From the IMG/VR virus record IMGVR_UViG_3300044645_001661: a stretch of 64,000 nt of DNA; one strand, given 5' to 3'. A program made the translations under genes and the position numbers. This DNA comes from a virus. Lineage: Duplodnaviria > Caudoviricetes. Each line of letters starts with the position of its first letter. Position 1 is the stretch's first letter. Positions 11,644 through 61,818 of the stretch are shown here, piece by piece. The notes under the pieces were generated by a model. That model was not told the origin of the DNA. It saw only the letters and a program-made list of their open reading frames with translations, and did not search any database.

Positions 11644-12201
11644 ATGTCTGAAATTCCCGACAAAAATAAAAATTTTAATTCTGTCTATAGTGATTTTTTA
11701 ACGACTGGAGAATCTTATATCTCGTCTGATACTATTTCCTTTACTGGATCTGGACTTTATGGTGGGATGAGTGATCAATCGTACTGGGAAAATGATGGAA
11801 TTAGTCTCACTGGTAATCCTTCTACTATTGGTGAAGATCATATTACCTTAAATCCACCAAGTTTTAAGAATCAATCTCAAACACAAACTGAATCTCAAAA
11901 TCATTTTTGGAAATTTGGTGAAGGGAAAACTCTTAAAGCAGTAGAAGATTATATTGTCAGTACGTATAAGGCACATTACGCATCTGATAGTTCTAAAGTT
12001 CAAGTTCTTGATATTATTGATGCCATTGGTGATGGTGTTCCATTCTGTAGAGATAACTTGATTAAATACTCTTCTCGTTTTGGCAAAAAAGATGGAATGT
12101 CTCGTCTTGATGCATTAAAGATTATTCATTACGGAATTCTTCTTTATAATTTTGCTGGATTTAATAATGAAACTTCGAAATCAAACTATGAAACTTTCTG
12201 A
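11644..12201 (+). CDS. Conserved hypothetical protein (DUF3310-like C-terminus)
   Basis: HYAS...IKYSSRFGKKDG...ALKIIHY pattern. Confidence 0.6.
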   Translation: MSEIPDKNKNFNSVYSDFLTTGESYISSDTISFTGSGLYGGMSDQSYWENDGISLTGNPSTIGEDHITLNPPSFKNQSQTQTESQNHFWKFGEGKTLKAVEDYIVSTYKAHYASDSSKVQVLDIIDAIGDGVPFCRDNLIKYSSRFGKKDGMSRLDALKIIHYGILLYNFAGFNNETSKSNYETF

Positions 12202-50661: not shown

Positions 50662-50690
50662 TTGACAGAACAAACATCTTGATGTATTAT
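50662..50690 (+). promoter_or_regulatory. Sigma70-type promoter for tRNA-Tyr
   Basis: TTGACA-17 nt-TATTAT. Confidence 0.8.
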
Positions 50691-50830: not shown

Positions 50831-50859
50831 TTGACAATCAAATCCCGATCTGATATGAT
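50831..50859 (+). promoter_or_regulatory. Sigma70-type promoter for the pseudoknot, tRNA-Arg and tRNA-Asn transcript
   Basis: TTGACA-17 nt-TATGAT. Confidence 0.8.
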
Positions 50860-50934: not shown

Positions 50935-51008
50935 GTCTCAGTAGCTCAGTGGAACAGAGCAACCGCCTTCTAAGCGGTCGGTCGTTGGTTCGAATCCAAC
51001 CTGAGACG
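50935..51008 (+). tRNA. tRNA-Arg(UCU)
   Basis: GTCTCAG/CTGAGAC acceptor; CT-TCT-AA loop. Confidence 0.95.
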
Positions 51009-51033: not shown

Positions 51034-51105
51034 TCCCCTATAGCTCAACGGCAGAGCAGAGAGCTGTTAACTCTAAGGTTCCTCGTTCGAATCGAGGTGG
51101 GGGAG
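51034..51105 (+). tRNA. tRNA-Asn(GUU)
   Basis: TCCCCTA/TGGGGGA acceptor; CT-GTT-AA loop. Confidence 0.95.
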
Positions 51106-51362
51106 TCGGAAGGACTGGAAATGTCTGGGACTTCCTCTAAATCCTAACTTTTGTTAGGTCGGGGACTTGATCGCCCCCGTTCGTAACAGAAAACGCTGGA
51201 CAAACTTTGGAGGTATAAACCCTTGCAAGGTCTCCCACCCCATTTGGGTGCCTTCCTGAGAACAGGAAAAATAAGGTTTGGTGTTTTCTTTTATCACTGC
51301 CCTCTAATGCAGTGAAAATCGCAGAAAGTGTCTTCTGCGGGTGGTGGTCACTCACTACCCAT
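51106..51362 (+). ncRNA. Candidate multi-hairpin ncRNA immediately 3' of tRNA-Asn
   Basis: About nine consecutive hairpins; GC-richer than flanks; no credible + strand ORF. Confidence 0.6.
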
Positions 51363-51515
51363 TAACCTCTGGTATTCTATTGCTAAGGATATAGGTGTCA
51401 TAATGATTAATATTTTTAAAAAAGTTTATTTGAAGATAAAAGAATATATTGACTTTAAAAAAGTCTCTAAAAAATGTAAGGAAGAGGATCCATACATTTA
51501 TAAATAAAACTAAAA

Positions 51516-52298
51516 ATGTCTAATAACATATTAATTACATTTGGATGTAGTTGGACTTTTGGTGAAGGGTCTGGTTATGTTGATGGAATGAGTGAAGTTG
51601 AATATAAAAAAATTCAACATGATCCAAAAATATGTTACGAAAACTCTTGGAGAAAAGTATTAGTAGACCATTATAATTTAGTTCATATAAATTTTTCTGT
51701 CTCTGGAAGTAGTAATCAAAGACAATTTAAAACTGCTAGAGAATATTTCGTAACTGAGAAATGGAAAAAATTAATTAATAATCCTAAAAACAATGTGGTT
51801 GTTTTATGGGGAATTACTAGTACTTATAGAAATTATTTTTGGTGTAAAGATACTAGAAGATATGAAAATATTTTTTATAATTTAAAAGGAGATAAAATAG
51901 AATATAATAATTATCAAGATAAATTAGCAGAAGCAATGCTAAAGTGGTCTTATAACAGAGAAGTTGAAGTTGAAGTAATAAAAAACGAAATTTTGTTTTT
52001 TAATCATTATTTTAATCTAGTTGGAGTTAAAAACCTTTGGTTTGATACCTTTAATTTTATTAATTATGGAGAAAAATTTAATAATTTTTTAGATGAATCT
52101 TTAGAACAGAGAGATTTATTATCAATGCTTTGTTATGAACATGCTAGAAAATCTAATATTAAACTAATATTAGATAATAATTTTAAATATGCTGAAGAAA
52201 GTGGACTAATAAATTCTTTTAGTTATCATCCTAAAAAAGATCAGTATAAAATTATTGGTGAGTATTTTATTAGGAAACTTAAAAAATACTTTAAATAA
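51516..52298 (+). CDS. SGNH/GDSL hydrolase-like protein
   Basis: FGCSWT (block I), SVSGSSN (block II), YHP (block V); TATAAATA at 51499-51506. Confidence 0.6.
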   Translation: MSNNILITFGCSWTFGEGSGYVDGMSEVEYKKIQHDPKICYENSWRKVLVDHYNLVHINFSVSGSSNQRQFKTAREYFVTEKWKKLINNPKNNVVVLWGITSTYRNYFWCKDTRRYENIFYNLKGDKIEYNNYQDKLAEAMLKWSYNREVEVEVIKNEILFFNHYFNLVGVKNLWFDTFNFINYGEKFNNFLDESLEQRDLLSMLCYEHARKSNIKLILDNNFKYAEESGLINSFSYHPKKDQYKIIGEYFIRKLKKYFK

Positions 52299-52348
52299 AC
52301 CAATAAATAGTTGACAAAATAATTTGTCTCTGTTAAAATAAAATCATC

Positions 52349-52420
52349 GGGCGATTAACTCAGCGGTAGAGTGGCCTCCTTACAAGTGGTAAGTCACTGG
52401 TTCGATTCCAGTATCGCCCA
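52349..52420 (+). tRNA. tRNA-Val(UAC)
   Basis: GGGCGAT/ATCGCCC acceptor; CT-TAC-AA loop; one U-U mismatch in the anticodon stem; TTGACA-17-TAAAAT upstream. Confidence 0.88.
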
Positions 52421-52864: not shown

Positions 52865-52951
52865 GGAAGGGCAATCCGATTGGCGACGGAACCTGTCTTG
52901 AAAACAGTTGAGGTGTTAAAGCCCTTGGGGGTTCGACTCCCCCTCCTTCCG
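52865..52951 (+). tRNA. tRNA-Ser(UGA)
   Basis: GGAAGGG/CCTTCC acceptor; CT-TGA-AA loop; long variable arm. Confidence 0.9.
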
Positions 52952-61093: not shown

Positions 61094-61818
61094 TGAAAGT
61101 AGCACTTGCATTTTTTGGACAACCTAGATTTGTTGACAACCAACAAATTATTGATACTTACAAAGAAGTAATTCTTGACCGATATGATACTGATGTATTT
61201 GGTCATATGTGGTGGCAAGAAGATGGTGGCGAATATGATTATTCTTCTTGGTCTAGAATAAATAAATGTCCGATTTCTGAAGACGCCCCAGAAATTGTTA
61301 CTAATAATTATTCTCCTTTAATTTTAGGTATTGAAGATCCAAAAACTTTTGAATTGCCACCTAAAGCTAAAAAGTTTATAGATGAAAAGTTTACAGGTAA
61401 ACATCCAGATGGAAATCATTGGAATCCTAAAAACTATAGTAATGTAATGTCGCAATTGTATTCTATTAAATCCGTTGCAGAAATTATTAAATCATATTCC
61501 GAAGAAACAAATACTAGTTATGATTTTATTGTTTTAGCACGATATGATACCGTACTAATGAGATTTCCTGATCTTAACGCCTGCGACAAATATAAATTCT
61601 ATCTACCAGGGCATCATCCTAGATTCCCAGATACGATTCAATTTTTTGGACCAAAATATCTTACTTGGGCACTTAATGCATTTGATGATATTGAAGATGT
61701 TTATGAAGACATTTGGGAACCATCTCCAGAAGCATTTAAAATGGGATCATTTTTAAAATGGTTTGAACATTCTGACCTTGCCCCTTGTTCTATGGACGCT
61801 GCTTGTATTAGAGGTTAA
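61093..61818 (+). CDS. Uncharacterised glycosyltransferase-like protein, paralog B
   Basis: KVALAFFGQPR, SQLYS, YDFIVLARYD. Confidence 0.5.
   Translation: MKVALAFFGQPRFVDNQQIIDTYKEVILDRYDTDVFGHMWWQEDGGEYDYSSWSRINKCPISEDAPEIVTNNYSPLILGIEDPKTFELPPKAKKFIDEKFTGKHPDGNHWNPKNYSNVMSQLYSIKSVAEIIKSYSEETNTSYDFIVLARYDTVLMRFPDLNACDKYKFYLPGHHPRFPDTIQFFGPKYLTWALNAFDDIEDVYEDIWEPSPEAFKMGSFLKWFEHSDLAPCSMDAACIRG

Follow-up and report, generated by a model that had tools for sequence, protein, structure and literature searches.

A fixed-order string of optional RNA modules behind tRNA-Asn in cyanophage tRNA clusters

Directly behind a tRNA-Asn gene in a viral genome from IMG/VR (record IMGVR_UViG_3300044645_001661; 64,000 nucleotides (nt), the whole of which we call the window), positions 51106-51365 form a conserved structured non-coding RNA on the strand of the transfer RNA (tRNA) genes, with abundant compensatory changes among its relatives. 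This stretch is a fixed-order string of at least six independently assorting modules and not one RNA family; in the window these are HpA, hp1, hp2, domain i, H1 and the H2-H3 pair (Table 1). We put the probability at roughly 60% that the string is a stable RNA processed from the tRNA operon, with its fixed loops acting as recognition surfaces.

Fold, strand and covariation

Folded on the plus strand, 51106-51365 reaches a minimum free energy of -97.1 kcal/mol (z = -5.33), a value that none of 200 dinucleotide-preserving shuffles attained; the minus strand gives z = -3.97. The minimum free energy fold reproduces all nine hairpins that an initial annotation, made by reading the sequence without database searches, had named. 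That annotation was also right that the stretch lacks a credible open reading frame (ORF), that it is richer in GC than its coding flanks (0.47-0.49 versus 0.2-0.3) and that it begins at the 3' end of tRNA-Asn. The tRNA has no encoded CCA, and the first base after its discriminator (G 51105, followed by UC here and by UU in relatives) is the first base of the structured stretch, 51106; nearly all relatives share this boundary.

Homologues altered two details of the pairing. In the first hairpin, the inner helix read as GAC/GTC gives way to CUGG/CUGG in an 11-base-pair (bp) register, and relatives do not retain the outer CCTT/AAGG helix drawn about the AGAA hairpin but conserve the stem UUCCUG/CAGGAA there. 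The annotation had also overlooked a 13-bp long-range helix (P1 in Table 1) that encloses the middle hairpins and makes them one junction domain, domain i. Apart from this closing helix, the predicted fold contains no long-range pairing between modules.

Two features bear on the strand. Model R1 scores 98 bits on the plus strand and 23 on the minus strand, and G-U pairs are frequent at HpA positions 6-23 and 9-20 and at the fifth pair of H3, where the opposite strand would hold A-C mismatches. The RNA strand is therefore that of the tRNAs.

No Rfam 15 family lies over 51106-51365 at gathering thresholds, in agreement with the expectation that the RNA belongs to no known family; the models covered include those for tRNA, tmRNA, RNase P, 6S, SRP, GOLLD, ROOL, T-box, abiF and self-cleaving ribozymes. 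With permissive filters (E <= 10), the stretch returned only two matches, both at chance level, one of 16 bits (threshold 46.5) and one of 6.3 bits (threshold 70), and an Rfam scan of ten related loci likewise left every module without a family.

Pattern scans of IMG/VR and the JGI metagenomes gave a homologue set of ~185 viral contigs and 65 metagenome contigs, to which the isolate Synechococcus phage S-SRM01 is added. Compensatory changes among homologues, the check proposed in the initial annotation, proved abundant. Among 36 distinct HpA sequences, 97.7% of cells were paired, both sides had changed in 8 of 11 pairs, and 0 of 500 shuffles did as well; the copy in the window has two non-pairs mid-stem, and one additional copy has an entirely different outer stem. 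The 62 distinct H2-H3 sequences were 97.8% paired, with double changes in 9 of 14 stem pairs. When H1-H2-H3 is taken as a whole, its 52 distinct sequences had 98.3% of their cells paired and both-side changes at 10 pairs, and again 0 of 500 shuffles were as good; sliding the partners by 1-3 columns brought pairing down to 30-47%. Over these changing stems the loops are near-invariant: AAAUGU in HpA, CCUCUAAY in H1, AGUGUC in H2 and, in most relatives, GGCACU in H3, which reads GUCACU in the window (51347-51352). Among relatives, the H1 loop has the variants CCUCUAAC, UCUCUAAC and CUUCUAAU. H2 and H3 abut directly, with a linker of 0.

The modules between HpA and H1 are also supported by relatives. 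Some copies of hp1 read CCUAAG...CUUAGG, a C-G to G-C flip with varied loops. Domain i is built from P1, which closes it, an internal loop, the 3-bp P1b and, at a junction, the three hairpins P2, P3 and P4. Its P2 tip varies in length, two of its pairs are compensated and several show G-U to A-U changes, which gives the predicted fold moderate support despite low sequence diversity. A contact between the HpA loop (AAAUG) and the P3 loop (CAUUU), which are complementary, was considered and rejected: by inspection, HpA variants are uncompensated and HpA occurs without domain i, so the match looks like chance.

Several minor observations concern the H1 hairpin. In one relative (L051, ~1517-1536) the H1 loop is inverted, ATTAGAGG standing in place of CCTCTAAT between unchanged stem arms, as though recombination of the inverted-repeat arms had turned the loop over. 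ATTAGAGG, exactly complementary to the window's H1 loop, also occurs at 61807-61814 as a ribosome-binding site 7 nt before an ATG, the sole such site outside the element. The H1 part of R1 has a weak match to the tRNA-Arg(UCU) anticodon arm, both in the window (50962-50978, 7 bits) and in phage JS98 (L249:147-163, 3.8 bits), and the loop variant CUUCUAAU includes the 7-nt tRNA-Arg anticodon loop CUUCUAA.

Table 1 Features of the module string and its operon in the window
Feature	Position	Strand	Description	Support
Sigma-70-type promoter-like site	50831..50859	+	TTGACA-17-TATGAT, TG before -10	11/12 consensus matches
tRNA-Arg (UCU)	50935..51008	+		70.3 bits
tRNA-Asn (GUU)	51034..51105	+		Rfam, 58.8 bits
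HpA	51108..51135	+	5' cap hairpin, 11-pair register, conserved loop AAAUGU	Covariation
hp1	51143..51158	+	Small optional hairpin CCUAAC-UUUU-GUUAGG	Sequence and relatives
hp2	51160..51179	+	Small optional hairpin CGGGG...CCCCG	Directly follows hp1 in every case
Domain i	51189..51288	+	~100-nt junction domain	18 distinct sequences
Domain i P1	51189-51201 with 51276-51288	+	13 bp	G-U to A-U changes
Domain i P1b	51206-51208 with 51269-51271	+	3 bp	Compensatory: U-A 12, C-G 6
Domain i P2	51209-51235	+		Tip length varies
Domain i P3	51236-51250	+		Fold
Domain i P4	51253-51268	+	Loop AGAA, conserved stem UUCCUG/CAGGAA	Compensatory changes
H1	51295..51314	+	6-bp hairpin, 8-nt loop CCUCUAAU	Compensatory changes in 2/6 pairs
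H2	51321..51338	+	6-bp hairpin, loop AGUGUC (51327-51332)	62 sequences, 99.5% paired, both-side changes in 3/6 pairs
H3	51339..51360	+	8-bp hairpin	Both-side changes in 6/8 pairs
5' remnant of tRNA-like gene	51366..51392	+	Gene that follows H3 in relatives	~24/27 bases match by eye

Module architecture and distribution

Across relatives, the order of the modules is constant. Behind tRNA-Asn comes HpA, followed by the optional hairpins hpX, hp1 and hp2. A middle domain may come next, and after it H1 and the H2-H3 pair; a further domain is occasionally added, and the next tRNA usually ends the series. Within this order, modules are present or absent independently of each other, always on the tRNA strand. 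The 96 distinct spacers behind tRNA-Asn fall into more than 30 architectures, and relatives differ by insertion or deletion of whole modules. The two commonest are HpA-H1-H2H3 (105 nt) and HpA-domain i-H1-H2H3 (207 nt). The shortest, H1-H2H3 alone, is 71 nt long and takes up about the room of one tRNA between tRNA-Asn and the tRNA that follows, whereas the full order seen in the window, HpA-hp1-hp2-domain i-H1-H2H3, occurs in only six contigs.

The individual modules differ in how widely they occur. A search by regular expression found HpA in ~150 of the 185 related viral contigs; H1 is present in 110, domain i in 41, and hp1 and hp2 occur together in 36. The middle position is swappable among five unrelated types (i in 23 contigs, ii and iii in 14 each, v in 5 and vi in 1) and is empty in 28; the window has type i, and elsewhere its slot is taken by one of the four unrelated domains or by none. 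H1 and the H2-H3 pair can also be parted: two relatives (L230 and L257) keep H2-H3 without H1, and a third (L243) has H1 with H2-H3 replaced.

The string stands directly behind tRNA-Asn in nearly all loci, though the tRNA-Asn genes are of several quite different sequence types. In one locus (L024, ~11690-11770) the tRNA that precedes the modules has a GUU (Asn) anticodon and a long variable arm. Five loci (L016, L040, L042, L048 and L061) have, directly upstream of tRNA-Asn, an ORF that ends in the HNH-like motif CANCHRE(L/I)H, and it is possible that such ORFs drive the shuffling of modules. Their position is reminiscent of T4, in which the homing endonuclease gene segB sits within the tRNA cluster.

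The window is assigned to an uncultured freshwater T4-like cyanomyovirus on three grounds: the ~78% identity of its ribonucleotide reductase genes to their counterparts in S-SRM01 and other Kyanoviridae, the presence of a wcaG RNA alongside eleven tRNA genes, and the fact that the sequencing runs covering it best are lake-water metagenomes. Its string is thus one version of a modular RNA that occupies the spacer behind tRNA-Asn in tRNA operons of freshwater T4-like cyanophages. In a distant-mode search of 50,697 phage records, S-SRM01 alone matched beyond tRNA. In that phage, tRNA-Arg(UCU) and tRNA-Asn are followed by 207 nt without annotation, onto which tRNA-Thr joins directly; the publication describing this phage lists the tRNAs and no RNA in the gap between tRNA-Asn and tRNA-Thr (PMC8557907). 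A three-part pattern run against 185,579 prokaryote genomes gave 117 matches, none of which passed the H1 stem check, a result that a diverged host homologue could escape. On that evidence, the element appears to be phage-specific. We found no published description of this module family, and neither Rfam 15 nor the S-SRM01 annotation contains it.

A layout of optional modules in fixed order is unusual for bacterial or phage non-coding RNAs, and it suggests that tRNA operons are expression and processing platforms for interchangeable RNA cargo.

Expression, processing and possible function

The reading that we favour, a stable RNA released from the tRNA operon, begins at the promoter-like site at 50831-50859, which by consensus match would head a unit of tRNA-Arg, tRNA-Asn and the structured RNA. 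Host RNA polymerase would transcribe the string from this site together with both tRNAs. In tRNA maturation, RNase Z-type enzymes (ribonucleases, RNases) cut CCA-less precursors after the discriminator, and RNase P cuts at the 5' end of a tRNA. Trimming of the CCA-less tRNA-Asn after its discriminator would thus set the 5' end, and an RNase P cut at the next tRNA would set the 3' end in most relatives, where that tRNA begins 49-51 nt past H1 and the 3' boundary of the string lies 3-5 nt ahead of it. Both cuts together would free the spacer as a separate RNA that has a hairpin near either end. Stable hairpins 2 nt from the 5' end and 3-5 nt from the 3' end would then shield it from exonucleases, as with T4 RNAs C and D. 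The weakest step of the scheme concerns what the RNA then does: the invariant loops would serve as recognition surfaces, those of H2 and H3 would base-pair with one another, and, least supported of all, the RNA would have a role in trans, in which it binds or titrates some factor of the host or phage that is connected with tRNA or translation.

Some data from relatives are consistent with this scheme. Two loci (L043 and L059) have a promoter, TTGACA-17-TAATAT, in place of the tRNA, and its predicted start lies 1-3 nt before HpA, at the 5' boundary that tRNA-Asn marks elsewhere. In a lake-water RNA library, assembled contigs cover tRNA-Asn, HpA and domain i of a relative at a depth of ~35, and an aquatic RNA library contains H1-H3 at a depth of ~3, which offers weak support for expression. 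The promoter-like sites of the window at 50662, 50831 and 52311, and the lack of a plus-strand terminator behind the structured stretch, also fit the scheme.

Several points weigh against the processed trans-acting RNA. The RNA-library contigs come from relatives, cannot show ends and could reflect DNA carry-over, and the parts of the stretch that they leave uncovered are no sign of absence. The string may stay whole or may be cut at its short AU-rich linkers. In the window itself, the 3' end is undefined because no more than 27 nt of the downstream tRNA-like gene remain, so RNase P cannot set it here. The predicted fold of domain i depends on few independent events. As to targets of a trans role, scanning the window for complements of the loops gave nothing convincing: the ribosome-binding site at 61807 is complementary to the loop of H1, and all else is at chance level.

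The main competing explanation holds that the modules work only in cis, as spacers that keep the tRNAs of a polycistronic precursor from misfolding and also provide RNase entry or stop sites, and are degraded after processing. The modules do always lie between tRNAs with gaps of 0-5 nt, many other spacers in these arrays are single small hairpins, and modules are lost while the flanking tRNAs remain. We nevertheless consider it unlikely, as the four near-invariant loops over covarying stems argue for sequence-specific recognition and against a generic insulator. An insulator would also not need a junction domain of 100 nt or the similarly large domains that can replace it, and the strings of L043 and L059 stand behind a promoter of their own with no tRNA upstream. 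A single integrated RNA of ~255 nt with one global fold, comparable to the large ornate phage RNAs, was the reading of the initial annotation; it would fit the low z score of the whole stretch and the six contigs that repeat the exact module order of the window. It becomes very improbable given that pairing between modules is confined to the closing helix of domain i, that every module is found without the others in relatives, and that minimal forms of 71-105 nt consist of H1-H2-H3 with or without HpA. Still more doubtful is a partner specific to tRNA-Asn, in which the H1 loop would offer an Asn codon to the GUU anticodon of the adjoining tRNA, as a specifier-like element or as a shield for the anticodon. 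The string follows tRNA-Asn almost without exception despite the diversity of these genes, and the last three bases of the H1 loop are AAU or AAC in all variants seen; yet three or four pairs are possible at most, a lone U/C transition is weak evidence, L230 and L257 keep tRNA-Asn and H2-H3 without H1, and H1 is a plain 6-bp hairpin for which Rfam gives no T-box match and whose likeness to the tRNA-Arg(UCU) anticodon arm is equally weak. Decayed tRNA genes or other non-functional filler come close to being refuted. H1-H2-H3 is tRNA-sized (~72 nt) and occupies a tRNA-like slot, and the optional domain iii, which is not in the window, carries a T-arm; against this, no tRNA model matches within 51106-51365 even at E <= 10, the acceptor stem is absent, and strong purifying selection on the loops with compensatory stem changes is seen across ~100 contigs.

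The complementarity of the H2 and H3 loops raises a further alternative. The consensus loops pair at 6 of 6 positions (duplex -8.1 kcal/mol), for which the chance with random loops is ~0.003, and 97.6% of loop-loop cells pair. An intramolecular kiss between these distal loops would be hard on geometric reasoning because H2 and H3 abut without a linker, and for that reason an intermolecular contact is worth considering. Two coaxially stacked hairpins could bind head to tail across molecules, giving dimers, rings or chains on which the variable middle domains would be exposed. Compensatory or compatible changes are consistent with such pairing: one relative (L242) has AGUAUC with GAUACU, another (L305) has AGUGCC with GGCACU, turning U-G into C-G, ten sequences have GACACU, which gives six Watson-Crick pairs, and one has GACAUU, which gives a G-U pair. 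ROOL and GOLLD provide a precedent, as kissing loops connect their molecules, and one of these contacts was initially taken for a tertiary one (PMC12286853). However, loop 2 is almost invariant, so the change in L242 is the sole true compensatory double change; three variants, namely GUCACU (the window's own, which has a single U-U mismatch to the loop of H2), GCCACU and AGCGUC, pair less well and are uncompensated; and an H1-anchored scan of 241 million metagenome records, which gave 47 distinct sequences, added no new loop variants. We regard self-assembly as quite unlikely. The same holds for its extension, that the H2-H3 dumbbell turns the tRNA-Asn spacer into a self-assembling scaffold on which different lineages display different cargo domains (i, ii, iii, v and vi).

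The family also offers experimental access. More than 100 natural variants and clear module boundaries make the family a tractable example of the extra stable RNAs of phage tRNA clusters; its near-invariant loops point to specific partners, and the candidate loop-loop contact has a natural compensatory mutant. S-SRM01 on freshwater Synechococcus is a cultured phage-host pair in which the RNA lies between two tRNAs, open to deletion and mutation.

Related phage RNAs and the surrounding operon

Extra stable RNAs in phage tRNA clusters have been known since work on T4 in the 1970s. The biological role of T4 RNAs C and D is unknown (PMC3014915). Like the cyanophage RNA, these two RNAs (species 1 and 2; rnaC and rnaD) are non-coding RNAs on the tRNA strand that abut a tRNA in a T4-like operon; in T4, tRNA-Arg is followed 1 nt later by rnaD and then by rnaC. 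The neighbouring tRNAs are shared as well, with Tyr-Asn-Arg(UCU)-rnaD in RB14 (L252), Met-Asn-Arg-rnaD in JS98 (L249) and Tyr-Arg(UCU)-Asn-RNA in the window, and this common block hints at an old linkage across T4-like phages. In contrast to the combinatorial string of optional modules in cyanophages, T4 RNAs C and D are two fixed genes. R1 found no match on the rnaC/rnaD interval of T4 or in the RB14, VR20, ECO4 and JS98 loci, and the conserved blocks of T4 rnaD have no counterpart in the cyanophage RNA. Homology to rnaD had been suggested by a look-alike loop, CCCUCUUA, and was rejected as that loop is not conserved among T4 relatives. The cyanophage element is a positional, and probably also a functional, counterpart of T4 RNAs C and D and not a member of their family.

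The initial annotation had likened the stretch to GOLLD and ROOL, which are single folds of over 800 nt and roughly 580 nt, respectively, with their own Rfam models. The likeness is sound for the genomic niche, in that all are phage-encoded, often near tRNA islands, of unknown function and equipped with (here candidate) kissing loops, and fails for size, sequence and covariance models: the cyanophage units are 20-100 nt long, assort independently and score below every Rfam threshold. A mutually complementary loop pair in one small phage RNA is also found in the phi29 packaging RNA (pRNA), where complementary loops drive intermolecular ring formation and the RNA binds the portal of phi29-like proheads. 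T4-like phages are not known to need an RNA for packaging DNA; oligomerisation of the cyanophage RNA is hypothetical, and the two RNAs have no sequence similarity. If the scaffold were real, it would be, in principle, a small modular relative of pRNA rings and of ROOL and GOLLD cages.

Other small phage RNAs, including pseudo-ToxI and the anti-CRISPR Racr RNAs, act by mimicry or by binding host factors. HnrS likewise counters a host system in this way (PMC13502914). Unlike these, the cyanophage RNA has no repeat structure, and we found no likeness to a known antitoxin or CRISPR repeat; a tandem repeat was looked for by reading the sequence, with no repeat finder run, and none was seen. Were the modules to serve as decoys that occupy host nucleases or defence factors, the cluster of tRNA genes would constitute an anti-defence island at the level of RNA. 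In two related arrays, the abiF RNA motif (RF03085) stands directly ahead of a tRNA (L010:2367-2403 and L014:9501-9537; 44.8 and 50.2 bits) and, from this sequence match, may be an antitoxin mimic directed against AbiF-type abortive infection; Rfam scans gave no match to it in the window. With T-boxes the element shares only the weak 3-nt Asn-codon match in the H1 loop; a stem I platform and an antiterminator with an acceptor-binding bulge are not found, given the absent T-box model match, and H1 is dispensable in some arrays.

Around the string, strong sigma-70-type promoter-like sites lie at 50662 (before tRNA-Tyr), 50831 (before tRNA-Arg) and 52311 (before tRNA-Val). The remnant at 51366-51392 resembles the start of the gene that follows H3 in L017 and L028 and is divergent beyond 27 nt. 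In the window, this downstream tRNA-like gene is cut short by an AT-rich island with an ORF of 260 amino acids (51516-52298), for which we found no Pfam match; behind the island come the promoter-like site at 52311 and tRNA-Val at 52349. Three readings that involve these surroundings were rejected. A leader or riboswitch for the ORF fails as relatives have tRNAs downstream and not the ORF, an array of terminators does not fit a stretch free of U tracts on its plus strand, and a guide RNA of the IscB/TnpB type is at odds with an adjoining ORF that has no Pfam match and is not conserved beside the RNA.

Other RNA elements occur in related arrays. Marine cyanophage S-CAM9 (L309:674-866) has an unrelated GC-rich spacer of 193 nt between tRNA-Asn and tRNA-Val, whose first hairpin is HpA-like; it folds with a z of only -1.46 and gave no match to R1. 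Permuted genes for transfer-messenger RNA of cyanobacterial type lie inside three phage tRNA arrays (L043:1366-1640, L013:3971-4223 and L030:6151-6307), and a group I intron is found at L026:4978-5172. In the window, 52865-52950 is called tRNA-Sec by Rfam (48.8 bits, threshold 47) and tRNA-Ser(UGA) with a long variable arm by ARAGORN, the latter being the more likely reading.

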